Assembly: GCA_012959435.1 (NCBI GenBank)
Contig: DUDF01000116.1
Location: 5,366-69,365 of the forward strand
DNA: 64,000 nt
Direction: 5' to 3'
Origin: Candidatus Poseidoniales archaeon
GTDB taxonomy: Archaea; Thermoplasmatota; Poseidoniia; Poseidoniales; Thalassarchaeaceae
Both the position numbers and the translations under genes were made by a program. The notes beneath the pieces were generated by a model. The model saw nothing but the letters and a program-made list of their open reading frames with translations, was not told where the DNA came from and did no database searches. Positions 25,133 to 61,964 of the stretch are shown here, piece by piece (position 1 is the stretch's first letter; each line of letters opens with the position of its first letter).

Positions 25133-25144
25133 TGAATAGCACAT

Positions 25145-39029: not shown

Positions 39030-39830
39030 ATGACACTCTCAATCACTCACCTTGGCTCAGGCTCTGGTGGAAACGCCACCCTCATCGCCACTGATGAGAC
39101 AAAAATCCTACTTGATTGTGGGTTTTCTGGAAAACAAATTGAGAAGCGCCTCGGGATGTTAGAACTCTCTCCAACAGACCTTGATGCCATTCTAATTAGC
39201 CACCACCACATTGACCACTCGAGAGGGGCCGCCATCACCCAAAAACGATGGGGGACAGAAATTTGGGCTAACTTTGAGACTTGTGCCAGATTAGGAATGG
39301 ACCCAGTGAACGAATGCCATTTGTTTGAGGCGCTAACACGTATTGATGTCGGTAGTGATTTGAGTATTCTCCCATTATCAGTCAACCATGATAGGGCCGA
39401 TAATGTTGGGTTCATTGCATCTCATCGCGGGGAGCGGGCCGCAGTGGTAACTGACCTTGGTTCTTGGAACGATGAATTAGCCCGCCACATGGCTGAATGT
39501 GTGCACATTTCTATCGAGGCAAATTATGACTCTGAACGGTTATGGAATGGGCCCTATCCAGAACGCCTTAAACAACGAATTAGTGGACGTGGTGGCCACC
39601 TATCTAATCGGCAAACTGCAGGCCTATTATCGAATGTCGTAGGTGAGCATACACGTAGCATTGTTTTGAGTCACCTGAGTGCTCAAAACAATGCCCCACA
39701 TTTAGCGGAAAGCGAGGTGCTAATGGAGATTGATGAAATGTTTACTGGAGACATCTCAATTAGTACCCAAGAAGGGCCGGAATTTTCCCATTATTTAGGC
39801 CAAGCAGAGTCCGAAAAAATTGCTATTTGA
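39030..39830 (+). CDS. MBL-fold metallo-hydrolase
   Basis: LGSGSGGNATLI near the N-terminus and ILISHHHIDHSRG (HxHxDH zinc motif). Length is 266 aa. Confidence 0.85.
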   Translation: MTLSITHLGSGSGGNATLIATDETKILLDCGFSGKQIEKRLGMLELSPTDLDAILISHHHIDHSRGAAITQKRWGTEIWANFETCARLGMDPVNECHLFEALTRIDVGSDLSILPLSVNHDRADNVGFIASHRGERAAVVTDLGSWNDELARHMAECVHISIEANYDSERLWNGPYPERLKQRISGRGGHLSNRQTAGLLSNVVGEHTRSIVLSHLSAQNNAPHLAESEVLMEIDEMFTGDISISTQEGPEFSHYLGQAESEKIAI

Positions 39831-39971
39831 TAGGTTCTAATCAAGTAGATTAGCAGACGATTCACATCATTCTTGTTTGAATCCAAATACTTAGTTGATA
39901 TCACACAATTTGGTTATGCTACCAACCACATAAGTAATGCTTGATTCCGGGATAGAACCTTAGTCAGATAT

Positions 39972-39986
39972 ATCGCCTATGGCGAT
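39972..39986. promoter_or_regulatory. Palindrome ATCGCC-TAT-GGCGAT next to a TATA-like GATATAT upstream of the pilin-like operon
   Basis: A 6+6 bp inverted repeat lies 47-61 nt upstream of the GTG at 40033. The left arm abuts cagATATATcg. Confidence 0.2.
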
Positions 39987-40032
39987 GTATTTCACAGCGA
40001 ACCCATAAGAACGGGGAGGGTTAGTCACATCT

Positions 40033-41052
40033 GTGAGGCGGAGCGAGAGCCATAACGAGGACGCGGTTAGCGAAATCCTCGGAGTTACTATGCTGTTAGC
40101 CATGGTTGTCACTGTGATTGGGAGCGTGTTTGTACTACTCACCCCATTTCTTGAAGACATCAGCGACAATCGTGAATGGTCATCTGGCACAGTAGCAGCG
40201 ACTCAGTTAAACGACCGGATTTTAATTGCTGCTCAAACCCCAGAGGGTAGTGGATTGGTGCAACAAAACGCTCAACTTTCTCGGTCAATGGACCCACTAC
40301 AAGATGCTGAAATATGGGTGATTCAAGCAGATCTTGGAGGTAGTGACCGAACTGTAGTAACCCTTGATGGTGACCTGCTCACGGTCACCAGTCTCAATCG
40401 CACAGCATCAATTGTAAGAGTTAACGATTCGATTTCAACACAATCTTTCACAATGACAAACCACACAAATAATTTTACTGTTTCAGGTTTAATTGGCAAT
40501 GTGGTCATTGAAGTCGAGGATATTTACGGAACAATATCACATCGTTTCGTAGAGGTGGCAATTGATGGAATCCGCCTCAAAAATGTATTAACAGATGGGG
40601 AATTTTCAGTTGATTTAATCAACGGTGGAAGAATAGAGAAATTACCAAACCAGCCAGTTGTAGTCAAGCAATTCCCTCGTTTTAAAACAGATTTATTACT
40701 TGATGGGACACCAAGAGTTTCACTGATTCTTCTTGACCTTGATATTACATCTTCTGCAAGCCGACATATGACTAACGTACATCTGGATTCAAAAGGTGAA
40801 CAAGCACTATTTGACAGCGAAGCACGGAATCTAATTGTTGAGATTGAAATAGCAGGTGACCCTTCAATACCCCCTCAATATATCCACCACTGGACCGGTG
40901 ATTATGCCCTGTATCTGGCAGGCGACTCAATAAACGAGTACCAAGGATTTGGGCCAAACGGACGCATCTCAGGACTTGACGGGATAACGGTCCTACCAGG
41001 TGATGTACCATTCCAATTTGTTGTGACATTACAATCGGTGGAGGTATACTGA
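40033..41052 (+). CDS. Class III signal peptide (archaeal type IV pilin-like, DUF1628-type N-terminus) protein, 339 aa
   Basis: MRRSESHNEDAVSEILGVTMLLAMVVTVIGSVFVLL matches the archaeal pilin N-terminal pattern (charged leader, A|VS, ~22 hydrophobic residues). The rest is a beta-rich domain with several N-x-S/T sequons. GTG is the only start after the in-frame stop at 40006. Confidence 0.7.
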   Translation: MRRSESHNEDAVSEILGVTMLLAMVVTVIGSVFVLLTPFLEDISDNREWSSGTVAATQLNDRILIAAQTPEGSGLVQQNAQLSRSMDPLQDAEIWVIQADLGGSDRTVVTLDGDLLTVTSLNRTASIVRVNDSISTQSFTMTNHTNNFTVSGLIGNVVIEVEDIYGTISHRFVEVAIDGIRLKNVLTDGEFSVDLINGGRIEKLPNQPVVVKQFPRFKTDLLLDGTPRVSLILLDLDITSSASRHMTNVHLDSKGEQALFDSEARNLIVEIEIAGDPSIPPQYIHHWTGDYALYLAGDSINEYQGFGPNGRISGLDGITVLPGDVPFQFVVTLQSVEVY

Positions 41053-43265
41053 TGCGTCGTAGATTCGATGATGAAGCGGTTTCTGCGGCGATCGCAACTG
41101 TTCTACTGTTTGCTGGTGTGCTTGGTATCATTGCTGGGATGATGGTTACTATCACCCCCCTGATTAATGAGAAACACGGCTCAGTTGAAAGGCAAGCAAT
41201 GGCAGGTCAAATGGAGGATTTAGCTGCTGAAACAGTCAGAATCTCTGAAAATGGGTTGCCGGGAGATTCTGCAATCATACAACTCAGACCACACTCAGGA
41301 GAATTAGGTTGGGACTTAGCCCAGGGAGGGACATGGTATTCGGTTGCCTTCGTTGAGGGTGGTAGTTTGCGTCTTGATGGATTACTAGATTTAGATGACA
41401 AAACTAGAATACGATATTCTGAAAGTGAAGTTTCCGCGGCTTGTTTTTCAGATCTTAGAGCAAATAAGGACGCTACTTGGAATTACAGAATCCCAAGTAT
41501 TAGTGGTACTATTCTGGCCACACCTGCTACCAGCCTCCAACAACCACTTTATGATACCACGGTGAAATACACAACTGGAGTAACTAGTAGTTATTATTCT
41601 CTAATTCCTGGTTCAGTATTGTCAACTTCATCAACTGAAGAAAGTTGGTTACAATCGGATGGCCCACTGAAAGTCATATTCTTACGAGGTAATGGAGGAG
41701 TCACGATGGTTGAGCCTGACCTAGTCAACCCTTCAGATGGTAAAGGAAGGTCATGGACAATACCGATGCCAACTGGGTCTGTTAGTTTACATCTTGTCAG
41801 TTCTGATTTAACTACTGTTAGTTGGGATTCTAATTCCAACTCCGGTACTGCTACTAGTACCGGTTCACCTGCAACGTGGAATAGTGATTTCACCACATTA
41901 GCAGGGGATGTGATGACCGTTCATTCCAGCACCCCTGCGAGATTGATGATGGTTTGGGGTGGCGCCACAGGCGCCACTGTGTGGCCTGATGATGGAGGTA
42001 GTGGATTAGGGATTAGTCACACACTTCCTGCAGCAGCGGGTAGTATTCTGATTGAAAATCCCGAAACCACATCAATAGCTGTTCAGATTGATGGGTTGTT
42101 CAACACTATTTCTGCTCAAAGTTCAATACGAATTCCATGGCCAGCAATATCATCACAGATTGTATCAACTGGTCCAGTACAAGTTCATTGGCTTGCAGAA
42201 GATGCAAGTAACTCTTATCGCACTGGCTCACTTGAAATGATTCCTGCCACAGATACTGGGCGCTCAAGTGGCCTAGAACACTCGTATGCAACACCAACTT
42301 CAGCGGCTGACGAAAGAGTTCTGATTCAGCCAGCCAGCCCCGAAACATCTCTAATATTAATTGCAGACCTTGAAGCGGGCCAATCAGCTCAAATCACAGT
42401 GAACAATTCTAACGGTAGCCACCTAGCAACTCTTACTCCAACGGCTTCAAACTTAGTGAGAACCACAGTTAATTCAACAGACCAACTGGATGACGCACCA
42501 TTCCGAATTATATCAGTAGCAGGAGATGATGGGATGATGGAAATTCGCCAAGATGGAGAGCAGAGATGCTTGCCCATTGGATACTGGGCTTCAGGTTGGG
42601 TTGAATTAAACCTCCCTTGGGAAGATTTTTCACACTATAACACTGCTATTGTGAAGGATGCATGGAAGGATGGGTCACATCCTTTGGGAGTTGAAGTCAC
42701 TCTATTTGGGCCACAAAATGGCGCCCCACATCACACCCTAGCAGCTGCTTGGGGTGCACACTTACCTCGCCTAAACTACGAATTCCAAAGTTCGGTTTCT
42801 GGCATGGAAATTGGCTACCGTGGAGGATTTGTTGGAACCAATCACCCTGAGTATCAAGCCGATGTTCTAATTCTCCCACCAGCACGTGAAGGTCCTGGAC
42901 CAAGATTAGCAGTCACAATACCCCTGACCATGCCTGCAGACAGTTCTTCAATCGGAAATAGCCGAGTTGCTCTTACTGTTTCATTAGATCAAAGAGTTCA
43001 GTTGGTATCTGTACAGGCACATGAAATACGCCGCGGATGGGATGGACCATATGGGTCTGCAATTGCTGCTGAATCATCTCAAGAATTGGCTTTCAGCGCC
43101 GACTGGTTGACATTCCCCGGGCGCATTGACCTTCTCGATGATTATGTTGGCTGGGTACAATTGACGCATTCTAGCCCTGAGGCAATTTACCATGCATCTG
43201 GTGAATCGATAATGTTCAATCTACAACTGAGTCAGATATCTATTGATACGGAGTTGATTATTTGA
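41052..43265 (+). CDS. Class III signal peptide (pilin-like) protein, 737 aa
   Basis: MRRRFDDEAVSAAIATVLLFAGVLGIIAGMMVTI. The ATG overlaps the upstream stop (ATGA at 41049..41054). The C-terminal block MEIGYRGGFVGTNHPEYQADVLILPP...RLAVTIPL resembles the block DLINGGRIEKLPNQPVVVKQFPRF...RVSLILLDL in gene 1. Confidence 0.7.
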   Translation: MRRRFDDEAVSAAIATVLLFAGVLGIIAGMMVTITPLINEKHGSVERQAMAGQMEDLAAETVRISENGLPGDSAIIQLRPHSGELGWDLAQGGTWYSVAFVEGGSLRLDGLLDLDDKTRIRYSESEVSAACFSDLRANKDATWNYRIPSISGTILATPATSLQQPLYDTTVKYTTGVTSSYYSLIPGSVLSTSSTEESWLQSDGPLKVIFLRGNGGVTMVEPDLVNPSDGKGRSWTIPMPTGSVSLHLVSSDLTTVSWDSNSNSGTATSTGSPATWNSDFTTLAGDVMTVHSSTPARLMMVWGGATGATVWPDDGGSGLGISHTLPAAAGSILIENPETTSIAVQIDGLFNTISAQSSIRIPWPAISSQIVSTGPVQVHWLAEDASNSYRTGSLEMIPATDTGRSSGLEHSYATPTSAADERVLIQPASPETSLILIADLEAGQSAQITVNNSNGSHLATLTPTASNLVRTTVNSTDQLDDAPFRIISVAGDDGMMEIRQDGEQRCLPIGYWASGWVELNLPWEDFSHYNTAIVKDAWKDGSHPLGVEVTLFGPQNGAPHHTLAAAWGAHLPRLNYEFQSSVSGMEIGYRGGFVGTNHPEYQADVLILPPAREGPGPRLAVTIPLTMPADSSSIGNSRVALTVSLDQRVQLVSVQAHEIRRGWDGPYGSAIAAESSQELAFSADWLTFPGRIDLLDDYVGWVQLTHSSPEAIYHASGESIMFNLQLSQISIDTELII

Positions 43266-43738
43266 GACGCAATTCAGAATTTATGCGCGATACTGTTGCC
43301 GCAGCCACCGAGTTAGGGTATGTGCTGACTTTCTTGCTTGGACTCTCATTCCTGTCAGTATTCAGTATTTGGACATGGGAACTTCAGGATGAGCGAGGAG
43401 ATGTATGGTTAGAACAGGCAATGGAGGAGAACTTAGATTCCATCGCAGAAGCAGTGGAACGAGCAGATCTTGCTAGCCGGCAGGAAGGTGATATCACCTA
43501 TGCTGAACCAGTTGACCTACTTTTATCTAAAGCAGTAAATCTTCAATTAAGATTAATATTAAACGATAATGAATTATTAATGCAAGATAAAGGTGAAACT
43601 TTGGTATTCTCAAGAGATATTTCGTCGGCTAGTGCCACCAACCATAGCGGAGAAGTAGAATTAGCTGGTTTACAACGAATATGGGTATTGCTTCAGGGAA
43701 ATAATGTAACTATCACCAGTAACCAACCAGGATTCTAG
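43262..43738 (+). CDS. Small pilin-like or N-terminally anchored protein, third gene of the operon
   Basis: MRRNSEFMRDTVAAATELGYVLTFLLGLSFLSVFSIW. The TTG start overlaps the upstream TGA. An alternative ATG at 43283 gives MRDTVAAA.... Confidence 0.5.
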   Translation: MRRNSEFMRDTVAAATELGYVLTFLLGLSFLSVFSIWTWELQDERGDVWLEQAMEENLDSIAEAVERADLASRQEGDITYAEPVDLLLSKAVNLQLRLILNDNELLMQDKGETLVFSRDISSASATNHSGEVELAGLQRIWVLLQGNNVTITSNQPGF

Positions 43739-43744
43739 ACCTGA

Positions 43745-46264
43745 TTATCCCATTAGGGCGCGATGAACCTTAGACTGGATTTCACGCATCCGGTCATTTG
43801 CCCCTAGTTCTCTGAACACAGTGAGGGAACGCTGTAGGTATTCCATGCGCCTACTACGATCAGGAGCCGCTTCACCAAGGCGCGCTAATAATTCACCAAT
43901 CAACACCCTAAAATCATTTGATTCGGCCAACACGAGGGCGTCACGGTAACATTCCATCGCTTCATCACGACGCCCCGCATCCACCAACACCTCACCTAAT
44001 AACAAAGTGATTTCAACTTCCGCGTGATGGTCCCTCTCTTCAGAGAGTCCATCTAGGGCACCTATGTAATGGTGTAACGCTAATTCACGGTCACCGGTCT
44101 TGGAATAGTATCTCCCTAAAACTGCGCGTGCCCTCGCTTGATGAACTGAACTGCCACCTTCGCTAGTCTCATCGTAAGCCAAAAACGCATGCTCTTTGGC
44201 CCTGTCCTCCTCTCCCATCTCAAGGAAGGCTGATGCTAATTTAATCCGTGATTCCACCAATTCAGGGTCATCTTCAGATTCAAGAAGTTCTTCCACATTA
44301 GCGTAAACCTCCAAGGCTCTCTTGTCATTTTTCTGGCGGCGGTAGATGTAACCCATATTGTTGTAAGTTCTAGCCGCCCCTCTAGGGTCGTTTAGTTTAA
44401 TGAATGACTCTAATGCTTCTTTGTGCAATGCAAGTGCTTCGTCGGCCTCGCCAATTGTAACTGAAATATCTGCTAGACTAGACTTAATTCTTGCTCGAAT
44501 TAATTCCTCCTTTTTACTAGAACCAAGTATTTCAATTGCTTCATTATAATGAGATTTAGCATCTGACCAATTTCCTTGCATTGAAAGAATATTGGCTCTG
44601 AGTTCAAGGATTACTGGCCACGCCGAATCATCTACTGAATCTTTGTCAACAGAATCGAGGATGGGGAATAATTCCATGTGACCTGCTTGAACAAGGTCTG
44701 AGCCAATAGTAGCAAGTGCTTCACCTAACTCCTCAGAGTCCCCGGACTGAGATAAGTGGAAGAGAAATTCAATCTGTTCCTCGGGGCGTTCTCTGCGTGT
44801 ACGATACCAATCTACTGCCTTTGCATGTAATTGCACGTTTGTATCAGAATCTAGTGAGCGGGTCAAAAATTCACGAATCAAATCGTGAACATCATACATT
44901 TCTGAATCAGCCTGTCTAGCCAATCCCTTCTCAACTAAGTCATCGAGCAAGTCTGTTTCTAAATCATGGCCGCTTAATGCTTCCAAAGGCATTGGCTCCC
45001 TGAAAACTGCAAGGGCACCAAGCAATCGTTTTTCAGCACCTGAAAGTTTGCTGAAAATTTCCTGTTCAATATACATTTCCAAGGTCTCGTAAAAAGTGGT
45101 CCCAATAGAACCACGATTAATCAAATTTAGAACAAGCGGGTGACCTCTAGATAATCCGTAGATGTGCTGGTAAGTCACTTCATCAACTGGCTCTAGTGAT
45201 GGCAGTAAATTTCTACAAGCATCCCTATCCAAGCCATCTAAAGGCACCACTAATGTTGTGATTTTACCTTCTGCGTCACGCAATGGAACGACTGATTTGA
45301 ATGACCGCGAAAAGAGAATCAAACCAGTTTCATCCAAGTCATCCATACGCTGAGTTAATCCCCTAATGACTGCATACAAAATGTCATCTGCGACCTTGTG
45401 TAAATCATCAATGACGATAATAGTTGGGACATCAATAAGTGAGTCCACAATTAAATCAATTGACATTTGTGCTACAGGCACTGGAGTAGCAGCTAGATAG
45501 TCCGAAAGGGAATCATTACCAATAGCAGCCAACCATTCCCCGCAAGCCTCTAGGAATGCCCTTGAACCCTCCCAATCTTGTACCCGGTGGTATAGTAAAT
45601 TGCGCTTATGTGTGAAGGTCTCTATCAATTTACCAGCAAGAGCAGTTTTTCCAATCCCTGCAATCCCAGGAACTAGAATTGTTGTTGACCGCGCATCAAG
45701 GAGATCTACCATCGTTTTTACTTCTGTGTCACGCCCATAGAAACTGCGTAATCTAGGTAAATCCTCAAGAGATGTTACTAGTTGTTTCTCTACGTGTTTT
45801 GCCAAATCTCTTTTTATTAATTCAGGATTCAATGGGCGCAAATCAACAAGGCCGCTATCATCCATATAACGGATAATATCAACCGCCCTAATAGAAAACG
45901 GTGAACTTTCAACCGCCTTTGCTAATGTTGTGCTACTTGTGCTTCCTTCTTGGCCAATCAATCTCACAGGATAGTTGGACAATCTCTCCCAAGTCTCTTC
46001 TGCAACAATCATGCCCGAATCGGTTAGGAAGTAGGCTTTCCGCTTACGAGTCACTCCTGTGACGTGAGTCTGCCTCTCAACCAACAAACCTTGGTCTCTT
46101 AGTCCAGCAATTGCCCTAGGAACATTACTACGAGCTATTGCAACAGCATTTGCAATACCCATCTGAGAAAGAGCAAACGGAACTTCAACCTTGCTTGAAT
46201 AATCTCCAAAGTCACGTAGGTGTAACAGGATTCTTTCCTGAACACCTGGTTTAATGACTACCAA
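43745..46264 (-). CDS. wHTH - STAND/AAA-type NTPase - TPR regulator
   Basis: N-terminal winged-helix-like region (ERILLHLRDF...GIANAVAIARSNVPRAIAGLRDQGLLVERQ). Walker A VPGIAGIGKTALAG and Walker B TIIVIDDLHKV. C-terminal TPR-like repeats (ARTYNNMGYIYRRQKNDKRALEVY, AVLGRYYSKTGDRELALHHY). The TTG start is preceded by AGGAGAGGA 5 nt upstream. Confidence 0.8.
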   Translation of the reverse strand: MVVIKPGVQERILLHLRDFGDYSSKVEVPFALSQMGIANAVAIARSNVPRAIAGLRDQGLLVERQTHVTGVTRKRKAYFLTDSGMIVAEETWERLSNYPVRLIGQEGSTSSTTLAKAVESSPFSIRAVDIIRYMDDSGLVDLRPLNPELIKRDLAKHVEKQLVTSLEDLPRLRSFYGRDTEVKTMVDLLDARSTTILVPGIAGIGKTALAGKLIETFTHKRNLLYHRVQDWEGSRAFLEACGEWLAAIGNDSLSDYLAATPVPVAQMSIDLIVDSLIDVPTIIVIDDLHKVADDILYAVIRGLTQRMDDLDETGLILFSRSFKSVVPLRDAEGKITTLVVPLDGLDRDACRNLLPSLEPVDEVTYQHIYGLSRGHPLVLNLINRGSIGTTFYETLEMYIEQEIFSKLSGAEKRLLGALAVFREPMPLEALSGHDLETDLLDDLVEKGLARQADSEMYDVHDLIREFLTRSLDSDTNVQLHAKAVDWYRTRRERPEEQIEFLFHLSQSGDSEELGEALATIGSDLVQAGHMELFPILDSVDKDSVDDSAWPVILELRANILSMQGNWSDAKSHYNEAIEILGSSKKEELIRARIKSSLADISVTIGEADEALALHKEALESFIKLNDPRGAARTYNNMGYIYRRQKNDKRALEVYANVEELLESEDDPELVESRIKLASAFLEMGEEDRAKEHAFLAYDETSEGGSSVHQARARAVLGRYYSKTGDRELALHHYIGALDGLSEERDHHAEVEITLLLGEVLVDAGRRDEAMECYRDALVLAESNDFRVLIGELLARLGEAAPDRSRRMEYLQRSLTVFRELGANDRMREIQSKVHRALMG

Positions 46265-46333
46265 AACAATCCTCTCCTAATGGAATAGATACCTGCTACC
46301 ATTCAATAGTTTCGCCTCAGATAGAATTACCTT

Positions 46334-50695: not shown

Positions 50696-50735
50696 GACAT
50701 CAAATCCTTGTTAAACAGCCGAGAACGCTGCCTAG

Positions 50736-50764
50736 TTATAAAAAAACGCCTTGCTGCAATTGCA
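50736..50764 (-). promoter_or_regulatory. TATA-like T7-ATAA element with an adjacent 10-bp palindrome TGCAATTGCA upstream of the beta-helix gene
   Basis: The minus strand reads tTGCAATTGCAgcaaggcgTTTTTTTATAAc, ending ~40 nt before the ATG at 50695. It could equally serve as the terminator T-tract for the upstream protease gene. Confidence 0.25.
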
Positions 50765-50879
50765 AAAATATCAAAGTAGCGCCATAAGTATCATCGTAAA
50801 TGAGGTGCCCTTCGGCCTATTTGTATCATTTGATTGCTAAAGTATCAACAAATAAGGTGGTTTTAGAGCCACATTATTC

Positions 50880-52130: not shown

Positions 52131-52230
52131 AGTCTCACCTAATATCCGGTAAAGGCGATGCTAAATGCACTCTTCGGCGTTTGGTCCCGAACCATCCTAG
52201 TTTTGTAACCAAGGATAACTTTGTATTCCA

Positions 52231-55200
52231 TCAGAATGGCATCTGACCGCTGAGGGAATTACGAATTCTTCGGAATCCTAGGAATCCAATAATGAAAGCT
52301 GCTATGATTAACAACGGCACCCAAATATTTACCGATTCGGGAGGTGGTGTGGCAACCTTCAACGATCTTGTGATACTTTCATCAGAATCTTCATCTAAAT
52401 CAAGTCCGAACTCACTCTGTAAAGTAAACACGAAATTCTGCTTGCCAATGCCGACGCCATCTAAATCAATGAAGAGAATGTATTCAGCCGTATTTCCAAT
52501 TGCTATATCCTGTGATTCTGAAAGGATGTAAAGGTCATCATATCCTTCAATTGAAATGTTAACTCTGATGTTTTTTGCGTCAACAAGGCCAGTATTTTCA
52601 AGCGATACAATCATTTTGTTGCTTTTACCTCTAACGGCATCTTCACCATTAAATGTACCAGTATTATCTATTATGAAGTTCAGAAGTGGCTTCGCAGACT
52701 TAATCTGTAATTCGATTGGATCATAGGCAGTACCATCAGTGCTATTGATATTTACAGCAAGTGTAAATGCTGTAGTGTCAGCATCAGCAGGTGCAAAGAT
52801 AGTGAACGAATATGTTCTTTCTTCACCATATGCCCAAGGCGATTCACTAGGTCCTGTAGCACTCCATCCATCTGGTAACCATGCAGTGTCAATCTCAAAT
52901 CCAAGCATGTCTTGGCCATTTCCTGTATTCAGAATAACGAATTCAACACGCTTCTCTTCCCCAGGGAATACTCCAATAGTATCTCCAGGTGATGATACAA
53001 TCTCAATAGAGTAAGTCTGAGGGATGTGAATCTTCAGGACATATTCGCTGAATGTACCTGTTGAATGGGTTGTTCGTAGTTTGATGATGTGCCCGCCAGC
53101 AATTGACTGTGCGTTCTCAACATCGGCTGTTGTAACACGCATGCGTATTGAAGATGAGGCACCACCATCCAAACCAAGGGTCACGGGTGTTGTCTCGCTC
53201 CAAATTTCTGTACCATTCTCATCTGTCCCATTATAGAACTCGATATTCCAGTAATCAACATCTTCTGCATCGAAGACTGTCCCGACCGTATACTCATCAA
53301 AGGCTTCGTTACCGTTGTAAGTCAAATTAACATTGAACTCTATCACTTGGTAAGCAGTTTCATTATCATATAATGCATTAACTTCCTCATTACTATCATC
53401 TGTTTGATTTGCCCCACTAATTGATGTGATGTTGAAGTCAATCGAGTGTTCAAGGATACGATTGTAATTGAAGGTCACTGCAGGAGCTTCTTGTTGAGCA
53501 GAAATAGTACTGGTCAACCCCGCTCGGTAAACCATTGCCATCCCTCGCTCATTGGTCTCAAATACGCCCTCAAGGTAAATGTCTCCACTAGGTAATAAGA
53601 AGTTAATTTGTCCATTAGAGTCAACTGTTTCGTTCCAACTAACTCCTAAGATGGTCACTTTAATTTCAGGTGAACCGAATATTTCTGCACCAGAAACACT
53701 AGTCTCACTCAAATCATGGCTCTCACCATTAAAGTCAATCCAGTTTGTGCTGAGTACCAAAGTCCCTCCTTGAATCATAGTCAAGTTCATTTGCGCACCA
53801 TCGTGGACGTCAGCCTCAACAATTGTAATCCCAACAATTCCTTCATCAACAACTGTTGCAGAAAGAATCCAATCACCGGGTTCAACATCAGCAGTCCACT
53901 CGCCATCCCAAGAGCCATCGTTAGCCATCACCTTAGTAGGTGTACGGGAATCTCTCTCGATTCCTGACGCAGGTATTAGAGTTAGGACAACATCATCTGA
54001 GAACTCATCCCAAACTTCCATTTGCACATAATCAACAATTCCAGAAATTGTAACATTACCTGCTGATAACTCAAGGTCTGTAGAGTTAGAAACTGTTGTC
54101 ACTTGAGCAACAATCGACACCGAAGAGAACCCAAGTTGAGATGCCTCAATAGAGTAATTGTTTTGTGACGGCACAAATAATTGCCATGTACCATAGGAAG
54201 AACTAGTCAAGTTCACAGGTGTATCAAGACCTCCTCCCGAGACGGTGATGTTTGCGCCTTCAACACCTTCGTTGAAATCGTACTCGTCATCAGAATCTAA
54301 GTCCCAGAACAAGTTACCTCCAAGGGTAACCCAATGTTCTACTGAGAAGTTAATGATTGAAAGGTTTTGACCGGCAGATAATGTTGCTAGTTGTTGATCA
54401 TCCAACACCCACCTATCCATTGATTCAGAGCGGTTTAGCGCTACAACCCAATCACCGGGGAATAGGTAACCAACCATATCTCCTTGATCGTTCGTGTACG
54501 GCAGTACTACCTCGCCATATCCATCTGAGCTAGTTGCAATTAGTGAGAAACCGGTCAACGGGTCACCTGTATCACCTTCAGAAAGGTGGATTGCTACTTC
54601 AGCAGATTCCAACGAGCGCCATATCAAACCTGTTCTAGATGATGTTTCATTCGTTGTAAGTGCAACTCTAAATTGTTCATATGTGTCCGCAACCAAAGTT
54701 CTGTCAACTATGACTACCCAATCACCCTCAGGTATGTAATCTGAAATTGTTCCGTTTTCATCCGCTAATATTTGGAATGTATCCTCAGAATCAACCGAGT
54801 TAAAGATGACTGTTATGTTATCTAGAATACCACCTGATTGATTGGTTAAATTTGCTTCTAACTTCCACAATGGTTCAAGTATCAATTCTGCATACTCTGT
54901 TGTGGTGTTATCCAATCCTAATTCAAGAATTAATTCATTGTCAATTAGAACTGTATCAAAGTCAGAGCCATTTACCTTGTCTTGTGCATCAATTGCGATT
55001 GTGTATACACCTGGTTGCAATGAAGCGTTGTAATGTCCATTTGACATCTCATCTGCTGTGACGTTCAATCTTGTACCAACTCCTCCTCCAGAAATCGGTA
55101 CGAATGCAAAATCAATACTGACAAATGTGCCATTACTACTGTTCCCATCAAGTGAATGGTCTAGGAAGGCAGTAATGTCCACAGTGATGTTGTCAGGGTT

Positions 55201-58200
55201 TGCTATCAACTCCACGCGAGAAAGTTCTTCGAGGTTTATATCTGATACTTCTAATAGTAATTCATCAACATTTAGTCTATCATCTGAGACATCAAATGTC
55301 CAATTACCCTGCATCAACTTCTGTGAAAAGCGCCCTGTTTCAGGATCAATATCAAAGTACCAATGTACACCTCTATCAACCTGATATGCATGCAATTGCA
55401 CTTCAGTAAACCCAGGGATATTCGGCGTATAGGCAGTTTGGTTCTCAAATAGGTAAAGCATACCATCTACCAACAACCCTTCTTCTAAGTGAAGAATGAC
55501 TGGTGCCATACCATCAGAAACCATGAAATTGGTGCCATTTGACATTTGATTTGCAATTGATGTGGTGGTCATATTTACATCTACACCTTCAGGTAAGAAC
55601 ACTGAGAAATTACCTGCTTCGGAGCCATAACCTGTTTGGACTGAAGTTGTGATTCCGCCCCATTGGAACTTTACCTCAATATTTGGAACACCTTCATCGG
55701 GTGACTCCTCTTTCCCAGTTTCAACAAGAATTTGACCGGTGACGTTGATGCTTCTCCTCAGCATCCAATTGATGTCTGTGATGTCCTCTGTCAACTCAAA
55801 TTCTTCCCACAGTAACAAATCACCATCGGAAGATGTGTTGGCAACCCACTCGCCTTCTGGCAATTCAACCCGATAAGTACCTGTTTCATTATCATAAATT
55901 GCTTCAACATATTCGTCGTCTGATAATACCGGACCATGGAAATTGATAACTGCATCAGTAACTGGTTCGACTGAACCGCCACCGGCATCCTTCATCAGTG
56001 TGAATTCCATGTCAAAATGCATAGGAACTGCGGCATCACTGCTCGCCATTGTGAAATTCGTTGGGTCGATTGTAGCAGCGACTGCAGCTCTACCATCACA
56101 GAAATTGGCTGTAGCAGGAGTTATCCAAGGAATACATTCGTTGAATCCATCGCCATCAGCATCCATAACCATCTCGTATGAACCATCAGGAATAGGCCCA
56201 TAACCAAATGAACCATTCTCATCAGTATAGATGATACAGGGAGCAAATATAGCCTCAGTGCAAGGTTCTGTTGCCTCTTCATCAATGCTTACTTCAGTTA
56301 GGTACAATTCAGTATTTGCAATTGGCGAACCATTGAACCAAACTAGTTCACCATCGAGTCGAGAACCCGGTAGACGTAATTCAACTCCACTAGTTGGAGT
56401 CGTATCAACTTCAAGTGGAGTACTCAATCTAGTGATATTCCCATTTGGAAGAATAACATAAACTCGGTATGAGCCAGGTAATGCGTCAACTAAGTGGAAT
56501 GTACCGGGCTCAACCATTGGGCCGTTGAAAATACCAGCACCGCTGAATGTGCCACTACCGTTGATTGTACCGTATGTTTCAAGACTCTCATCAGTCCCAT
56601 CGGTGAAGAATATACCGTTGCCTACAAGTGTTTCACGGTATAATGTTGCAGTGTAATCAACTGAACCATTTGCAGTTACTTTACCTGTACCGTCAAAAGT
56701 CCCTGAGAACAAGTATGTAACTGGATCTGAATCCGCCAATGTACATATTTCAGAGGGTTCAGGGATTGTGTTATTAACACATGTTGGAATTATTTCACCA
56801 CTTGTGATATCGCCAACGAATTGACCTGCACCAGAGAATTTCCCAACCCCTGTAAATGAGTGATTATTTGCAATCTGTCTTGTGTAGTTACCAGTGAAAT
56901 CAGACACTAATACCTCGCCTTCAGTAACTACCAAACCAGCACCAGTAAAGGTCACCTCACCTTCACCACGGAACACACGTGGATATTCATCGGTTGACAC
57001 AACTGTACCATTAGTAGTCCAGATATGCCCTAGTTCTTCTTCTGTCCAAATATCAGTAAAAATCAATTCATGGGAACTCAAAGGTGTCCCATCAAATGAT
57101 GAGTGCCCTTCCCAAGTAACAATTCCTGTCGCACTGGATGCTTCAATTGACAATGACTTCGAAATAACTGCACCACCATTGGTATCTGCTTGCGCACCAG
57201 TGACATTGAAATCCATCTCTCCGAGTAACTTCCCACCACTAACATTTGCCAAAATTCCAGTGATTGGATTAACTGACCTACTACCATCTTCATCAGTGCT
57301 TTGGCCTAAAACATCTGAAAACCATCCTTGCCATTCTTGGAAGTTGCTTTGTGCTGAGACGATTGCGTCACGGTCTTGATTACGCAAAACCTGTGCATCT
57401 TCTGCAAATCCAGAGAATGCTGTTACGCGAATGTGACCTGCTGGAACGCGGAATTCAAACCGTCCATTCTCGTCTGCATCAACTGAACCAATTGGGATCC
57501 AATATTCTCTTGGGTCCTCATCAAAGATATCTTCACCACTGTAAGCGTCACGTTCAATCAATAGACGTGCCTTCGGGACTACTCCGAAGTCACCTAATTT
57601 GACTTCACCACTTAGGGTAGCACCACTGTAGTACTTGAGTATCTTTACACCTGTGTTCGCATCATACCAAGGAGTGGTTTCGGTGGCTTCATCATTATAC
57701 CAATTCGCGATAACAAAGTTAGGCATCATAGCACCGGGAAGCGGGTATGCATACTGCAAACTGCTGTTCGTACTACCTCTTAGGTCAAAGTGCTGACCTG
57801 GCTGAGCAACCTTCCCAGGGAGACCCAATTGTGAACTACCGTAGCCAACATAAGCGCGGGCAACCATAGTTTCAAAGAATTCAGGCTCTTGATCAACCCG
57901 TAAGTCAACTGCTTGAATAATGTCCCCTGTGTTCTGTGATTGACTGAGTATGAGATCATTCTTGTATTGCTCTTCATATTCAGCTTGAGTCATGTCAACA
58001 AAGAAGTTTGAACTACCTCTCTGAGTAACATACCACGTCTTCATGTATGTCTCAGGGTCAAGACCAGCAAGTGTGGTAGGTGCATAGAAAATCCCCGTTG
58101 GATTACCACCACTACTCTGGTATGAGCCGCCTGTTGGATACAGACGATTATCAACTCCGAAATAACGAATATCGTGGTTTCTAGTAATAGTATCTCCAGG

Positions 58201-61200
58201 GCTACCCTCTGAATCTTCAACAATGTAGGTGACATCATTTGTTAATTGATGATAAATATCAACTAATTCAGGCATATCCATTACAGTAGTCAAGAAAACC
58301 CTACCTAGTGCTAAGCGGGCGTTCTGCCTGTGGATTGAAGATGATACATCATCAAAATCCTCAACTATGTCCTTTGTGTACCAATAATTACCAATTACTT
58401 GGTGACTAAACTTATTAACAACTTCATCGTTACGATCCTTTGATTGATTGAACTGAATCAATGCATCATTTTTATTGTTAAAATCGCCACCTATTTGCTC
58501 CTCACTATCATACACACGATAGATTGTAGCAGATGTTGGCATTCCGTTGTAGTCAAGCACGTGCCCCTCGCCAAGTGCAATTGCACCTGCTTTCTTAGTA
58601 ATTGAGAATGAACGAGATTTTAACTCATCAACCCCATTATCTCCACCTAGAGTGTTTAGAAGTAGGAACTCCTCAATTTGACTGTCAGTAAAATGCTTCT
58701 CTAAAGTGCGCTGGAAGTCAGGTGTAAATGTGCCACCATTGTATCTCAAATCACCTTCTGCAATCGTCATAGTGTAAAGTGAAAGCAAATCTTGGTCACT
58801 TTGTGCCAACAACATATTTCCAGCAGCAGGAATTCCGGACTGGAAGTTATCAGCGACTGTTGGATGCTTTCCTTGAGCCAATGCTTGGAATCCATAATCC
58901 CACCATGATACGAATGCTGGCCTTTGTCCAAACGGTACATCAGCGTCCTGCTCTTCAAGCCATTGATATCCCTCATTCCAAGATTCACCATTGAATCCAG
59001 GTCCAAAGGCACCCATGTACCAACAACTGCTTTCCTTTGCGCTACCGCGGCAATGGTTCGCTGGGTTGTACTGAGTAGAATCTAGGAAAGACCAACCAAA
59101 GATTGGATCTTCTGCACGCAGAATATTAGGTGTTATATTGTAAATATTTGAATCAATATCCTTTGCCTTTGAGTTCCCTGATGGAACCCCTGAGTCTAAT
59201 CCGTAGGTTGCGTGTTGTGCACCTACTAACATGAAAATCATCAGAACTGCAAGCACTCCAGGATATTTCCTAGCAGTCTTGGTAGTTGAGGAAAAGCGAG
59301 CTCTAGGAGAGCCGATACCGAGTCTGCGCCAAGCCTTGGCGAAATCAGTACCCCCTACCCACTGCCACATGATGACAAATGCCCAAGCACCCATCACTGC
59401 AACTGGAGGCGTTGCGTTGAAAATGAATCTACCAGCGCGCCATGCCATCACTCCTGCAACCAAAATCCAGATTGCTAGAACTAACCTACTACTATCACGA
59501 CGGCGCATGCCTTGCCAAAGTGCAATGAATCCAGCAAATAATGCTGCCAATGCTACTATTGGACCAAAGGATGCGAATAGCATTGCTCGACTTGGAGCCT
59601 GTGCTTCAGCGATAGTATCGAAAATTTTGTTCTTTGATAGATAGAAACCACCAGTAAAGAGAACATCCCAACCATTGTATATCCCCAAAAATTGAATCAA
59701 CCAAAGAGCACCGAGGATTACACCCGCTAGCGCACCTCCGCTAACCAATACCAGAAGCCATGGTTTGTCACGGAAAGAAACAGCGACCCACCCTGCTATA
59801 AATGTGAATCCGACAATGTAGAACATTGGTTGGAAACCACTCGCATCGAATACCAGTCCCAGTTGCATATGAGCATAGAATGGTAATGGAAGTAAGAATG
59901 TGACCAACATCATTGTCATTGCAGTAACATACAATGCCATGCTGTCACGTCTGCGGAATTGATTCATCACAATCTGAGCGAAGAACGCCAAGAAAACGAT
60001 TCCAAGACCATAAACGAACCCTTTCCATCCTAGAGCAACAGTAGAAAATGCAACACCTGAGAGAATAGCATTAGCAATTGCTCCTTGTCGCTTTTCAAAT
60101 GTGGCTTTGATTCCTTTGAATAAATAGGCAGGTGACCAATTTGCATTAGCCACCATTTTATCGTCCCCTGCTGCCTTTACTGCTTTCAACCAGAAGTAGA
60201 AACCTAGTGATAGGAACAAGATTGCAAATGCATCGTGGTCAGCCAAAGCAAAGGTGCTGTGACCAACGTGCCCTGGCATCAGAGCAATCAACCATGCCGC
60301 AACTGCACCAGTAGCACGACCGAAGAATCGGTTACCAATTCCTGCAATAGGTAGCACAGTTAGTGCACCATAAATTGCAGGAAGAGCCGCCACAGACCAC
60401 CAAACAGCGTCAGATGCTGGGACACCTAGCAAAGGTGCTAGAATCATGCCACCAACAGCAAGACTCCATGAAAACAAAGGTGGACGAGGGTTGATTGCAC
60501 CTAATGGGTAAGAACGATCCATGTCGATGAGGAAGTGGTTGTGCTCTGCAAGGATGTATTCAACCGTACGCATCATGTACCATGGGTCAGAACCACCAGT
60601 CAAGTCCCATTCATGGGTACCAGTAGAGTTCATGAATGGAAGAACATTCCATACCACACGAACTAGCAAACCAGACAAAAGAGCAGAACCTACGGTAATA
60701 CCATACCAATGCTCCTTCCAAAATTGCTTAGCCAATCCTGGTGTTCTTCTTGGTGAACCATCACCCAATTTTCCTTTGACACTTAGCATCACAACTAGCA
60801 CATTAAGCCAGAAGAAGATGAAGAACCAAACAAACAGACCATTATTCCCGGAGAAATATGAGTGCCATTCTTGTGAACCATTCATTATGATTCCATTCTC
60901 GTGGAAAGAACCGGCTGAGTAAATTAACCAGTTCATAGCGATTAAACCGCCACGTGTCCGCATATTTTCTGCAAAGCAATATGCAGTGAATAATGAGATT
61001 ACACCAGTAAATAGTGGCCACCATACTCCGATTGTATCACCTGAAATTCTCTGTGCTTCTGTTGCTGAGAAGAAAGATGATTCTGAAATCAGGTGGGCTA
61101 GAAGCCAAACACCAAATGCAGCAAACAACGGAATGAATGCTTTATCGTTGATTTTCTCTGGCAGGCTGGAAAACCAACCCTTTGTACTAGGCTTAACAAA

Positions 61201-61824
61201 TCTACCACGAATACCGAGTGTGACGAGCACACCGGTTAAGATAGATATCATCCAGCCGTTAAAGAACAGGAAAGCGGTTGCTTCCCTGTGCCCATCCATT
61301 GCGCCCCAGTAGTTCTCTGTTAGGTCAGGTAGCCAAGCACCGTTCACGAACTGAGTACCGTCCCAAAAAGGGGCAGCAACAGCTGCAAATGAAAGCGCAG
61401 CATAGAAGCCCATTACAATCCAGATGAGTAGGTTTGCTTCATCGTTACGACCTACTCTGTCAAACATGTGTACTCCGAATGCTAAAATCAGGAATAACAC
61501 TCCAAGTAGAGTATTCCCTAAAACCAACTGCGGAATCGCTGCTGCGAGTACTAGTGGCGCGAAGATTAGCAATGTGACCTGTGCAGGTTTCACTCCGAGG
61601 TTGGAGAAGACGATTCGTGGCACACTACCGAACATTGCACCGATCGTGAGTAACACGAACGGCAATACTTGCGTCATTATTGCTGTCTCTTTATCATAGG
61701 TCACACCCAGTGGATACATTGCCATCGTCATTAGCAGCAGAATAAGTGCTGCCAATGGTGCTCTAGCAAGCCCCCACACTACATTACGTAGCGCAGATGC
61801 GTTTCCTTCATTTTCCATTTCCAT
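52231..61824 (-). CDS. aglB: Giant oligosaccharyltransferase AglB/STT3 fused to an extra N-terminal polytopic domain and a ~1800-aa beta-sandwich stalk with a C-terminal TM
   Basis: STT3 hallmarks are all present: GGSDPWYMMRTVEYIL, LADHDAF, DTIAEAQ and SWWDYGFQ (58891..58905). Downstream lie at least ten CarboxypepD_reg/Cna-B-like repeats and two CARDB-like modules. The terminal TM is IWVPLLIIAAFIIGFLGFRRIR. The track start at 61896 is TTG; I use ATG 61824 (MEMENEG). ATG 61818 has better spacing from GAGGT. Confidence 0.85.
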   Translation of the reverse strand: MEMENEGNASALRNVVWGLARAPLAALILLLMTMAMYPLGVTYDKETAIMTQVLPFVLLTIGAMFGSVPRIVFSNLGVKPAQVTLLIFAPLVLAAAIPQLVLGNTLLGVLFLILAFGVHMFDRVGRNDEANLLIWIVMGFYAALSFAAVAAPFWDGTQFVNGAWLPDLTENYWGAMDGHREATAFLFFNGWMISILTGVLVTLGIRGRFVKPSTKGWFSSLPEKINDKAFIPLFAAFGVWLLAHLISESSFFSATEAQRISGDTIGVWWPLFTGVISLFTAYCFAENMRTRGGLIAMNWLIYSAGSFHENGIIMNGSQEWHSYFSGNNGLFVWFFIFFWLNVLVVMLSVKGKLGDGSPRRTPGLAKQFWKEHWYGITVGSALLSGLLVRVVWNVLPFMNSTGTHEWDLTGGSDPWYMMRTVEYILAEHNHFLIDMDRSYPLGAINPRPPLFSWSLAVGGMILAPLLGVPASDAVWWSVAALPAIYGALTVLPIAGIGNRFFGRATGAVAAWLIALMPGHVGHSTFALADHDAFAILFLSLGFYFWLKAVKAAGDDKMVANANWSPAYLFKGIKATFEKRQGAIANAILSGVAFSTVALGWKGFVYGLGIVFLAFFAQIVMNQFRRRDSMALYVTAMTMMLVTFLLPLPFYAHMQLGLVFDASGFQPMFYIVGFTFIAGWVAVSFRDKPWLLVLVSGGALAGVILGALWLIQFLGIYNGWDVLFTGGFYLSKNKIFDTIAEAQAPSRAMLFASFGPIVALAALFAGFIALWQGMRRRDSSRLVLAIWILVAGVMAWRAGRFIFNATPPVAVMGAWAFVIMWQWVGGTDFAKAWRRLGIGSPRARFSSTTKTARKYPGVLAVLMIFMLVGAQHATYGLDSGVPSGNSKAKDIDSNIYNITPNILRAEDPIFGWSFLDSTQYNPANHCRGSAKESSCWYMGAFGPGFNGESWNEGYQWLEEQDADVPFGQRPAFVSWWDYGFQALAQGKHPTVADNFQSGIPAAGNMLLAQSDQDLLSLYTMTIAEGDLRYNGGTFTPDFQRTLEKHFTDSQIEEFLLLNTLGGDNGVDELKSRSFSITKKAGAIALGEGHVLDYNGMPTSATIYRVYDSEEQIGGDFNNKNDALIQFNQSKDRNDEVVNKFSHQVIGNYWYTKDIVEDFDDVSSSIHRQNARLALGRVFLTTVMDMPELVDIYHQLTNDVTYIVEDSEGSPGDTITRNHDIRYFGVDNRLYPTGGSYQSSGGNPTGIFYAPTTLAGLDPETYMKTWYVTQRGSSNFFVDMTQAEYEEQYKNDLILSQSQNTGDIIQAVDLRVDQEPEFFETMVARAYVGYGSSQLGLPGKVAQPGQHFDLRGSTNSSLQYAYPLPGAMMPNFVIANWYNDEATETTPWYDANTGVKILKYYSGATLSGEVKLGDFGVVPKARLLIERDAYSGEDIFDEDPREYWIPIGSVDADENGRFEFRVPAGHIRVTAFSGFAEDAQVLRNQDRDAIVSAQSNFQEWQGWFSDVLGQSTDEDGSRSVNPITGILANVSGGKLLGEMDFNVTGAQADTNGGAVISKSLSIEASSATGIVTWEGHSSFDGTPLSSHELIFTDIWTEEELGHIWTTNGTVVSTDEYPRVFRGEGEVTFTGAGLVVTEGEVLVSDFTGNYTRQIANNHSFTGVGKFSGAGQFVGDITSGEIIPTCVNNTIPEPSEICTLADSDPVTYLFSGTFDGTGKVTANGSVDYTATLYRETLVGNGIFFTDGTDESLETYGTINGSGTFSGAGIFNGPMVEPGTFHLVDALPGSYRVYVILPNGNITRLSTPLEVDTTPTSGVELRLPGSRLDGELVWFNGSPIANTELYLTEVSIDEEATEPCTEAIFAPCIIYTDENGSFGYGPIPDGSYEMVMDADGDGFNECIPWITPATANFCDGRAAVAATIDPTNFTMASSDAAVPMHFDMEFTLMKDAGGGSVEPVTDAVINFHGPVLSDDEYVEAIYDNETGTYRVELPEGEWVANTSSDGDLLLWEEFELTEDITDINWMLRRSINVTGQILVETGKEESPDEGVPNIEVKFQWGGITTSVQTGYGSEAGNFSVFLPEGVDVNMTTTSIANQMSNGTNFMVSDGMAPVILHLEEGLLVDGMLYLFENQTAYTPNIPGFTEVQLHAYQVDRGVHWYFDIDPETGRFSQKLMQGNWTFDVSDDRLNVDELLLEVSDINLEELSRVELIANPDNITVDITAFLDHSLDGNSSNGTFVSIDFAFVPISGGGVGTRLNVTADEMSNGHYNASLQPGVYTIAIDAQDKVNGSDFDTVLIDNELILELGLDNTTTEYAELILEPLWKLEANLTNQSGGILDNITVIFNSVDSEDTFQILADENGTISDYIPEGDWVVIVDRTLVADTYEQFRVALTTNETSSRTGLIWRSLESAEVAIHLSEGDTGDPLTGFSLIATSSDGYGEVVLPYTNDQGDMVGYLFPGDWVVALNRSESMDRWVLDDQQLATLSAGQNLSIINFSVEHWVTLGGNLFWDLDSDDEYDFNEGVEGANITVSGGGLDTPVNLTSSSYGTWQLFVPSQNNYSIEASQLGFSSVSIVAQVTTVSNSTDLELSAGNVTISGIVDYVQMEVWDEFSDDVVLTLIPASGIERDSRTPTKVMANDGSWDGEWTADVEPGDWILSATVVDEGIVGITIVEADVHDGAQMNLTMIQGGTLVLSTNWIDFNGESHDLSETSVSGAEIFGSPEIKVTILGVSWNETVDSNGQINFLLPSGDIYLEGVFETNERGMAMVYRAGLTSTISAQQEAPAVTFNYNRILEHSIDFNITSISGANQTDDSNEEVNALYDNETAYQVIEFNVNLTYNGNEAFDEYTVGTVFDAEDVDYWNIEFYNGTDENGTEIWSETTPVTLGLDGGASSSIRMRVTTADVENAQSIAGGHIIKLRTTHSTGTFSEYVLKIHIPQTYSIEIVSSPGDTIGVFPGEEKRVEFVILNTGNGQDMLGFEIDTAWLPDGWSATGPSESPWAYGEERTYSFTIFAPADADTTAFTLAVNINSTDGTAYDPIELQIKSAKPLLNFIIDNTGTFNGEDAVRGKSNKMIVSLENTGLVDAKNIRVNISIEGYDDLYILSESQDIAIGNTAEYILFIDLDGVGIGKQNFVFTLQSEFGLDLDEDSDESITRSLKVATPPPESVNIWVPLLIIAAFIIGFLGFRRIRNSLSGQMPF
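58891..58905 (-). other. WWDYG catalytic motif of the OST domain
   Basis: The reverse complement of tccataatcccacca is TGG TGG GAT TAT GGA, encoding WWDYG. Confidence 0.9.
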
Positions 61825-61964
61825 TACCTCGGTTGTTGTCAGTCTTACGACCTTCAGCGTGGCCGCCACCTGACCCCTTTTTTTAACCGTTGCCAAACGA
61901 ACGCACGCACACCCACACGCACGTAGGGGGTAAAGCCGTAGTCCAACACTTGGTATTTTATTCT

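Follow-up and report, generated by a model that had tools for sequence, protein, structure and literature searches.

Envelope genes around a giant AglB in Poseidoniales: a proposed order-wide neighborhood of several transcription units

According to our analysis, a 64-kb stretch of contig DUDF01000116.1 (referred to here as the window), which derives from an MGIIb-like Marine Group II archaeon of the order Poseidoniales (MGIIa and MGIIb stand for Marine Groups IIa and IIb), carries a pilin-like operon of three genes, a STAND regulator next to a putative adhesin, a membrane-tethered S8 protease, and a giant form of the oligosaccharyltransferase (OST) AglB. We read these genes, with slightly more belief than doubt, as part of a lineage-specific, order-wide envelope-gene neighborhood in the core chromosome of the Poseidoniales, which comprises several independent transcription units and is not one machine. 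A preliminary description of the window had proposed instead a self-contained surface glyco-appendage module, in which the pilin-like proteins and the adhesin are glycosylated by AglB and matured by the S8 protease, with STAND as the common switch of all the genes. Such a jointly switched module is not supported by a control on the synteny, by the counts of glycosylation sequons, or by an array of TGATA boxes which is private to the adhesin.

All seven open reading frames (ORFs) named in the preliminary description are found on the expected strands in the ORF list, where the reading frame of AglB extends from 52231 to 61896. The features of the block are as follows.

27242 to 32815, minus strand: g1857, a 1857-aa surface protein (ORF, topology prediction)
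33004 to 38736, minus strand: g1910, a 1910-aa secreted acidic protein (ORF, composition, sequon counts)
39030 to 39830, plus strand: metallo-beta-lactamase (MBL)-fold hydrolase, 266 aa (Pfam Lactamase_B_2 and Lactamase_B above cut-off)
40033 to 41052, plus strand: pil339, with an archaeal type IV pilin-like N terminus (sub-threshold DUF7289 and Pilin_N matches)
41052 to 43265, plus strand: pil737, a large modular pilin-like protein (N-terminal motif, AlphaFold2 model)
43262 to 43738, plus strand: pil158, a small protein with one N-terminal hydrophobic helix (alignment)
43745 to 46264, minus strand: winged helix-turn-helix (wHTH)-STAND NTPase-TPR regulator, 839 aa (Pfam, NCBIfam)
46334 to 50695, minus strand: the putative adhesin, a 1453-aa membrane-anchored surface protein (Pfam, topology prediction)
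50769 to 50847, minus strand: TGATA(Y)T box array, the proposed operator or upstream activating sequence of the adhesin-STAND unit (conservation, shuffles)
50880 to 52130, minus strand: S8 subtilase, 416 aa, membrane tethered (Peptidase_S8)
52231 to 61824, minus strand: giant AglB/STT3, ~3197 aa (STT3 domain, motifs)

The genes g1857 and g1910 encode two giant surface proteins, which lie outside the interval of the preliminary description and inside the conserved block. The MBL gene precedes the pilin-like operon on the plus strand, and the gap that separates it from pil339 measures 202 nt in the window and has a median of 95 nt across loci.

Gene order across the Poseidoniales

A pattern scan for the pil737 family, carried out on one genome per GTDB species, identified 214 encoding genomes; 80 loci were returned and examined, all of them from Poseidoniales-type metagenome-assembled genomes (MAGs). 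Wherever the contig reaches, gene order and orientation, as determined by tblastn with the window proteins, are identical in 80/80 loci of both MGIIa and MGIIb, with the succession g1857, g1910, MBL, pil339, pil737, pil158, STAND, adhesin, S8, and AglB. The preliminary description held that its module would fall if no pair of these genes were syntenic in relatives; every pair turned out to be syntenic, but the test cannot discriminate. Synteny within the Poseidoniales cannot show a functional module because unrelated housekeeping neighbors are equally collinear. In the window, these neighbors are as follows.

61965 to 63969, minus strand: purD and the CDP-archaeol synthase gene (CarS), both housekeeping (Pfam)
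21327 to 26209, minus strand: DnaJ, u294, a family 2 glycosyltransferase (GT2), u170, and pcp-Nudix (Pfam)

In the MGIIa locus L085, purD abuts AglB and CarS, here inverted, adjoins purD. On the other side, in ~35 MGIIa metagenome loci, pcp-Nudix, u170, GT2, u294, and DnaJ occur downstream of the g1857 homologue in the order and orientation of the window. The collinearity therefore spans at least 43 kb (21.3 to 64 kb of the window), with housekeeping neighbors on both sides included, and conserved synteny within such a collinear lineage is no evidence of a module.

Outside the Poseidoniales, AglB homologues in two of the inspected loci adjoin sugar-nucleotide and glycosyltransferase genes or unrelated genes, and not STAND, the adhesin, or the pilin-like trio. 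A third distant AglB locus (L086) carries, within 10 kb, an S8 gene and a small gene of the Pilin_N family, with neither STAND nor adhesin; we treated this as a coincidence. The closest relatives of pil737 belong to uncultured Marine Group II archaea (93% identity of pil737 to a KM3 fosmid protein), and identity within the family falls to 34% in Poseidoniaceae. When 1.84 billion representative proteins were searched with a HMMER profile, only ~12 full-length pil737 clusters at 50% identity, plus fragments, were recovered, and the named clusters are marine "Euryarchaeota" MAGs. Since the loci of the species-level scan are all of Poseidoniales type and the HMMER search returns only this narrow family, we deem pil737 confined to the Poseidoniales. 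We found neither the block, nor a giant AglB, nor Poseidoniales pilins described in the literature that we searched. A complete Poseidoniales block was also present in NZEQ01000036.1 (L084), deposited as 'Verrucomicrobiales bacterium isolate ARS100', a title which is probably a binning or labeling error in the public record.

The adhesin-STAND pair and the TGATA array

Footprinting of upstream regions across loci revealed, on the minus strand ahead of the adhesin gene, four direct TGATA(Y)T boxes at 50769-73, 50789-93, 50824-28, and 50843-47. They correspond to -78, -98, -133, and -152 from the adhesin ATG, form two pairs with a spacing of 19 to 20 nt each, and are located upstream of an A+T-rich, TATA-like stretch at ~50736-50746. 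We counted 6 instances of TGATA-N14-16-TGATA in the window, where 0.69±0.83 are expected, and 0/100 shuffles reached this count. A phased TGATA pair is present at the homologous adhesin site in 52 of the 53 distinct loci, which represent both families, and the homologous sites fall at ~19.6 to 19.9 kb in loci L001 to L084. The density of boxes amounts to 3.9 per 200 nt at the adhesin, compared to 0.08 to 0.53 upstream of six other genes of the block, and in this comparison the adhesin had a phased pair in 51/52 loci and the six other genes in 0 to 2 loci. No phased pair was detected upstream of pil339 (0/76), S8 (0/53), or g1910 (0/70), nor was any found at MBL or STAND. The idea of a single switch for the whole set therefore finds no support, as the only conserved cis-element array that we found is private to the adhesin-STAND pair. 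Upstream of g1857, we observed a TGATA pair (32831-32855, minus strand) and a third box at 32919, conserved only in L005 and L020, which may be a clade-specific extension of the regulon or a chance occurrence.

The wHTH-STAND-TPR architecture assigned in the preliminary description was borne out. The protein has an HTH_Crp_2-like N terminus (24.3 bits versus a threshold of 27, hence sub-threshold), the Walker A motif GIAGIGKT, the Walker B motif IVIDDLH, a borderline AAA_16 match (32.4 versus 32.6 bits), and TPR_12 repeats (82.5 bits), and it is similar to MalT and AfsR according to NCBIfam. Conservation along the protein peaks at residues 41 to 80 of the wHTH, where column conservation is 0.94 over 61 sequences. 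The start codon is preceded by a GGAGAGG stretch. An anti-phage STAND function of the Avs type was considered and excluded, since PADLOC gave only generic TPR and weak PDC matches. As to the adhesin, it has a signal peptide, a beta-helix-like N-terminal region, Ig-like domains, a C-terminal transmembrane (TM) helix, and a short acidic tail. As for its earlier designation as a beta-helix adhesin, a Beta_helix Pfam match was obtained only in MGIIa homologues.

The TGATA array, the conservation of the wHTH, and the gap of only 10 to 97 nt between adhesin and STAND across loci suggest that the two genes form an autoregulated unit to which neither S8, AglB, nor the pilin-like operon belongs. The STAND gene is probably cotranscribed with the adhesin gene, and its product probably controls it. 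The minus-strand string would then comprise at least three units, because the array separates S8 from the adhesin and the gaps of 34 to 244 nt found elsewhere (133 to 244 nt between S8 and adhesin, 34 to 230 nt between AglB and S8) fit promoters.

MalT binds, in an oligomerization-dependent manner, to multiple short direct-repeat MalT boxes upstream of its target promoter. Like the STAND regulators MalT and AfsR, the window protein combines a DNA-binding domain, a STAND NTPase, and a TPR sensor (NCBIfam MalT, E value of 2.9e-11), and the directly repeated TGATA boxes would fit MalT-like oligomerization-dependent binding. By analogy, the sensing of a ligand would lead STAND to oligomerize and to bind cooperatively to the four phased boxes, and the bound protein would switch on the adhesin together with its own gene, as MalT does. 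Unlike MalT, the window protein carries an N-terminal winged helix and not a C-terminal LuxR-type HTH. The promoter setting is archaeal, the target is a giant surface protein, and the binding of STAND to the boxes is putative.

AglB, the S8 protease, and the likely glycosylation targets

The AglB label was confirmed by the STT3 match (PF02516; 54.5 bits versus a cut-off of 24.5) and by the WWDYG motif, found as SWWDYGF at residue 998 in ORF numbering; a D-x-D motif (DMD) is located at 458 to 460. Translation probably begins with the ATG at 61824, since the WWDYG motif of a homologue lies at residue 973, and numbering from the TTG at 61896 places it at 998 in the window protein. We predicted ~17 TM helices in the first 900 residues. 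The protein matches solved STT3 and Archaeoglobus fulgidus AglB-L chains only from query residue 366 onward, which points to an extra N-terminal membrane region of ~365 aa, with ~8 TM helices, ahead of the canonical STT3 TM1. The core is followed by an extracellular extension of ~2150 aa with a CarboxypepD_reg domain and then by a C-terminal TM anchor, and the total length is kept at 3181 to 3221 aa in both families. A PDB sequence search with the tail found nothing, and the archaeosortase A-associated AglB model TIGR04154 was matched with 192.5 bits, below its cut-off of 450.

In comparison with A. fulgidus AglB-L (PDB 3waj), the window protein shares the STT3 multi-TM core, the D-x-D and WWDYG motifs, and a C-terminal globular unit like that of the AglB core. 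It differs in its size (~3200 aa versus 875 aa in the solved chain), in the ~365-aa N-terminal membrane region, in the sequon-rich ~2150-aa tail, and in the presence of the CarboxypepD_reg domain and of the C-terminal TM anchor. Moreover, the window AglB is flanked by surface-protein genes and not by glycan-synthesis genes. The giant AglB is catalytically plausible, and its STT3 core would transfer a lipid-linked glycan to the sequon Asn of exported proteins. Because the homologue search recovered only this giant OST type for the Poseidoniales, AglB is probably a general enzyme, which suggests that it is the general N-oligosaccharyltransferase of the lineage in a giant form. In the long-read assembly that contains the MGIIa locus L085 (davie_1__contig_25036_pilon, 10001-19525), gene calling breaks AglB into seven pieces and S8 into two. 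The breaks appear to be frameshift artifacts, and they may explain why database searches return many 'partial' AglB proteins for the Poseidoniales.

The preliminary description also proposed a membrane-tethered S8 protease, and this annotation was upheld by a full-length subtilase match (Peptidase_S8, E value of 6.6e-41, 140.9 bits, profile positions 1 to 288 of 288) and by one TM helix. The catalytic motifs VDTG, HGT, and GTS are visible in the translation, and the predicted topology places the N terminus in the cytoplasm, a TM helix at 65 to 83, and the catalytic domain outside. The closest NCBIfam model, mycosin, was matched below its cut-off. The gene, which has its own upstream gap, would encode a membrane-tethered exoprotease.

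The many sequons that had been attributed to the adhesin and to the pilin-like proteins proved to be at chance level when compared with residue shuffles. Observed versus expected counts are 17 versus 14.2±3.3 in the adhesin, 4 versus 2.6 in pil339, 3 versus 4.4 in pil737, and 2 versus 1.2 in pil158, and the median z value in 49 to 76 homologues of each is near 0. A single N-x-S/T sequon of pil339, at N122, is present in 73 of 75 sequences. Enrichment was detected in g1910, with 37 sequons versus 16.8±3.9 expected and a z value above 2 in 45/45 homologues (median of 3.9), and in the extracellular tail of AglB, with 52 versus 21.1 (z value of 7.5); the tail of an MGIIa homologue has 44 versus 28.5 (z value of 3.3). 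Since the enrichment sits in g1910 and in the AglB tail, the substrate argument of the preliminary description was aimed at the wrong proteins. The most likely heavy substrates of AglB in this block would be its own 2150-aa tail and g1910, and heavy modification of the adhesin or of the pilin-like proteins is unlikely.

The protein g1910 contains 12.9% Asp and weak TSP3-like repeats (a weak TSP3_bac match), and it is the foremost candidate for a coat protein with heavy N-glycosylation. Its companion g1857, syntenic in all loci that reach that far, has a signal peptide, one TM helix at 1632 to 1650, and a cytoplasmic tail of ~200 aa, and it matched no Pfam family at an E value of 0.001 or less. 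Relaxed Pfam scans of the giant proteins gave only weak Ig-like, TSP3, and CARDB hints, and BLASTP among them found no shared domains. S-layer domains were not detectable in them by Pfam and PDB sequence searches, and no PGF-type sorting signal was seen at the inspected C termini of the neighboring surface proteins. Upstream of g1910, in the divergent g1910/MBL intergenic region, a ~60-nt block at ~38760-38820 (minus strand), comprising TGCTCCATCAGCATCATAAGG and an AACCC-GTA-GGGTT hairpin, is conserved between MGIIa and MGIIb; it could be a promoter or operator or a 5' leader structure.

These results weigh on the proposal of one dedicated, coregulated glyco-appendage module. In its favor, the products of all of the genes either belong to the envelope or modify envelope proteins, and the genes lie side by side in each genome that we saw. 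The arrangement is specific to the Poseidoniales, pil339 has a sequon conserved order-wide, and the convergent ends of the two strands abut or overlap (-4 to +7 nt). However, the housekeeping neighbors are just as syntenic, the sequons of the adhesin and of the pilin-like proteins are not enriched, the sole conserved operator-like array belongs to the adhesin, and the minus-strand gaps are large enough for separate promoters. In addition, AglB is apparently the sole OST type recovered for the order, so it is probably general and not dedicated. We therefore deem such a module improbable.

The pilin-like operon and competing readings

The overlapping stop and start codons reported for the plus-strand trio were confirmed (TGATG at 41050-41054 and TTGA at 43262-43265). 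The stop/start distances within the trio, -1 to +2 nt and -7 to -4 nt, recur in more than 80 loci, and we therefore consider the trio a translationally coupled operon. The convergent junction with STAND is likewise as described, with 6 nt between the stops at 43738 and 43745. Among 81 loci, the ends at this junction (43738-43745) abut or overlap in most cases, at -4 to +7 nt, and antisense read-through between the pilin-like operon and STAND is possible since such ends leave no room for a terminator.

All three proteins had been assigned class III signal peptides, which we defined by a short charged leader, Gly or Ala at -1, and an uninterrupted hydrophobic stretch of ~20 residues. The assignment stands for pil339 and pil737, which are credible class-III-type proteins judging from their N-terminal sequences, but pil158 lacks a pilin-type N terminus and does not fit the leader pattern consistently. 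In pil737, the leader MRRRFDDEA followed by VSAAIATVLLFAGVL is the sole strict FlaFind-like match in the window, and the N terminus carries the invariant motif D-[DE]-A-V-S-A-A-I-A-T-V-L-L-F. In pil339, EDA followed by VSEILGVTMLLAMVV fits the class III leader, with Gly or Ala at -1 and a hydrophobic stretch, except for Glu at +3, and the order-wide N-terminal pattern is R-x-[DE]-[AG]-V-S-E-[IV]-L-G-V-x-M-L-L-A-M-V. The N-terminal 45 residues of the two proteins are homologous (hhalign, 83%, E value of 8.8e-6).

Matches to pilin families were found mostly in pil339. Of 20 pil339 homologues, 18 match DUF7289 (best E value of 1e-5) and 14 match Pilin_N (best E value of 5e-4), all below the gathering scores; the window protein itself does not reach the Pilin_N (PF07790) gathering score (14.9 versus 25.2 bits). 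The pil339 profile also gave weak PDB matches to solved archaeal pilins at the N terminus. In pil737, only DUF7289 is matched, below threshold (E value of 0.021), and in pil158 neither family is. The latter shows no similarity to pil339 and has no Pfam family, and its alignment contains the invariant motif A-A-T-E-x-G-Y-x-x-T-F-L.

The AlphaFold2 model of pil737 (predicted local distance difference test [pLDDT] of 75.2, predicted template modeling score of 0.77) shows a helix at 7 to 67 followed by an all-beta part with multiple beta-sandwich domains, in agreement with the long N-terminal helix and beta-rich body expected of a pilin. In the PDB, Foldseek detected nothing beyond generic jelly-roll and beta-sandwich matches with template modeling scores of 0.12 or less, hence no meaningful solved relative. 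For pil158, the model built with 15 close homologues has a pLDDT of 40 and is unusable.

The lack of a pilus core near the operon was borne out, as the window ORFs with a length of 150 aa or more include no PilB, PilC, T2SSE, T2SSF, or peptidase A24 families, and T2SSE and T2SSF are likewise missing from the called genes of loci L001 to L004 and L085. Published surveys report flaH/I/J in all MGIIa and in only a minority of MGIIb, and the trio is present in every MGIIb tier that we sampled. Most likely, pil339, pil737, and the small helix-anchored pil158 would be minor-pilin or pseudopilin-like surface subunits, whose processing, and assembly if there is any, would need a peptidase, an ATPase, and a platform encoded elsewhere. 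Alternatively, the pilin-like proteins may simply remain membrane anchored via their N-terminal helix.

The minor pseudopilin tip complex GspI/J/K of type II secretion consists of three unequal pilin-like proteins encoded together, one of which is large. The trio is similar by analogy, with its very unequal sizes, one large member, and no major subunit, and it is unlike GspI/J/K in being archaeal and in having no secretion machinery nearby. Another comparison is with the minor pilin sets of euryarchaea (e.g., arCOG02911 type), which are ~250 to 550 aa in length and may be encoded apart from the ATPase/TadC module (Makarova, Koonin and Albers 2016, PMC4858521). The trio resembles these sets in its class-III-type N terminus, its all-beta body, and its tight multi-pilin operon. 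It differs from them in that no ATPase, TadC, or peptidase is encoded within 64 kb, in that pil737 has 737 aa and multiple beta-sandwich domains and belongs to a Poseidoniales-only family matching Pfam pilin models sub-threshold, and in that the trio persists in MGIIb, the majority of which reportedly lack flaI/flaJ.

Other explanations of the block can be weighed on these data. A coat-building island would make the AglB tail, g1910, g1857, and the adhesin a glycoprotein coat, with the trio as a short pseudopilus or anchor organizing or tethering it in the absence of a canonical type IV pilus ATPase. The four giant exported or membrane-anchored proteins are indeed encoded by conserved single-copy core genes, two of them are strongly enriched in sequons, and the trio is kept across MGIIb while flaI/flaJ were reported in only a minority of them. 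On the other hand, no S-layer domains were detectable, and we regard such an island as unlikely. A further variant, in which the self-glycosylating tail of the giant AglB and the neighboring giant glycoproteins act as the coat and, in lineages that lack an archaellum, the trio is processed and assembled with no canonical ATPase and platform of the type IV pilus kind, is to us distinctly unlikely; if true, it would mean that a surface structure based on pilins is assembled or anchored in a new way.

Little credence is given to the view that the genes are chance neighbors and that the 'pilin-like' proteins are type II signal-anchored membrane proteins with no interactions within the block. Although the pilin family matches are all sub-threshold, pil158 is without a pilin signal, pil737 is without a fold match to solved pilins, and no assembly genes lie nearby in the 64-kb window, the N-terminal 45 residues of pil737 are the best conserved part of the protein and are invariant across proteins that are otherwise 34 to 36% identical. 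This view is further opposed by the homology of the pil339 and pil737 N termini, by the archaeal pilin pattern of [DE]-[AG]-V-S followed by ~20 hydrophobic residues, by Pilin_N or DUF7289 being the top match in most homologues, and by the 60-residue N-terminal helix with beta domains in the pil737 model.

We favor the reading of an envelope-gene neighborhood made of several transcription units. Observed are the genes and their conservation, the motifs, the sequon counts, and the box array; the box-binding protein, the glycosylation targets, and the handling of the pilin-like proteins are inferred. Several points weigh against it. The operon boundaries are drawn from gaps and motifs only, and a factor other than STAND could bind the TGATA boxes. 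The presence of many large surface proteins beside the sole detected OST may reflect selection for co-location, which is not separable from inherited collinearity. All of the Pilin_N and DUF7289 matches remain below the Pfam gathering scores. Finally, the pil339 sequon kept in 73/75 sequences makes some link between AglB and the pilin-like proteins possible.

Elsewhere in the window, three plus-strand ORFs of 692 to 774 aa (7379-9703, 13603-15681, and 19038-21302) occur in housekeeping surroundings and match no Pfam family at an E value of 0.001 or less. No Rfam family, tRNA, or tandem repeat was detected when the window was scanned for them, and a scan for bacterial-type promoters and terminators, with models ill-suited to archaea, gave the same counts as shuffles.

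Members of Marine Group II count among the commonest archaea of the surface ocean; they are uncultured and have an uncharacterized cell envelope. In their chromosome, a stretch of ~35 kb holds the sole detected OST, in a giant form which appears not to be described in the literature searched, together with three giant surface proteins, an order-specific pilin-like set, and a regulatory element of the adhesin. The block offers concrete targets for glycoproteomics and for imaging antibodies, and the adhesin-STAND pair is a candidate switch by which a ligand would control adhesion, of interest for the attachment to particles that has been discussed for Marine Group II.

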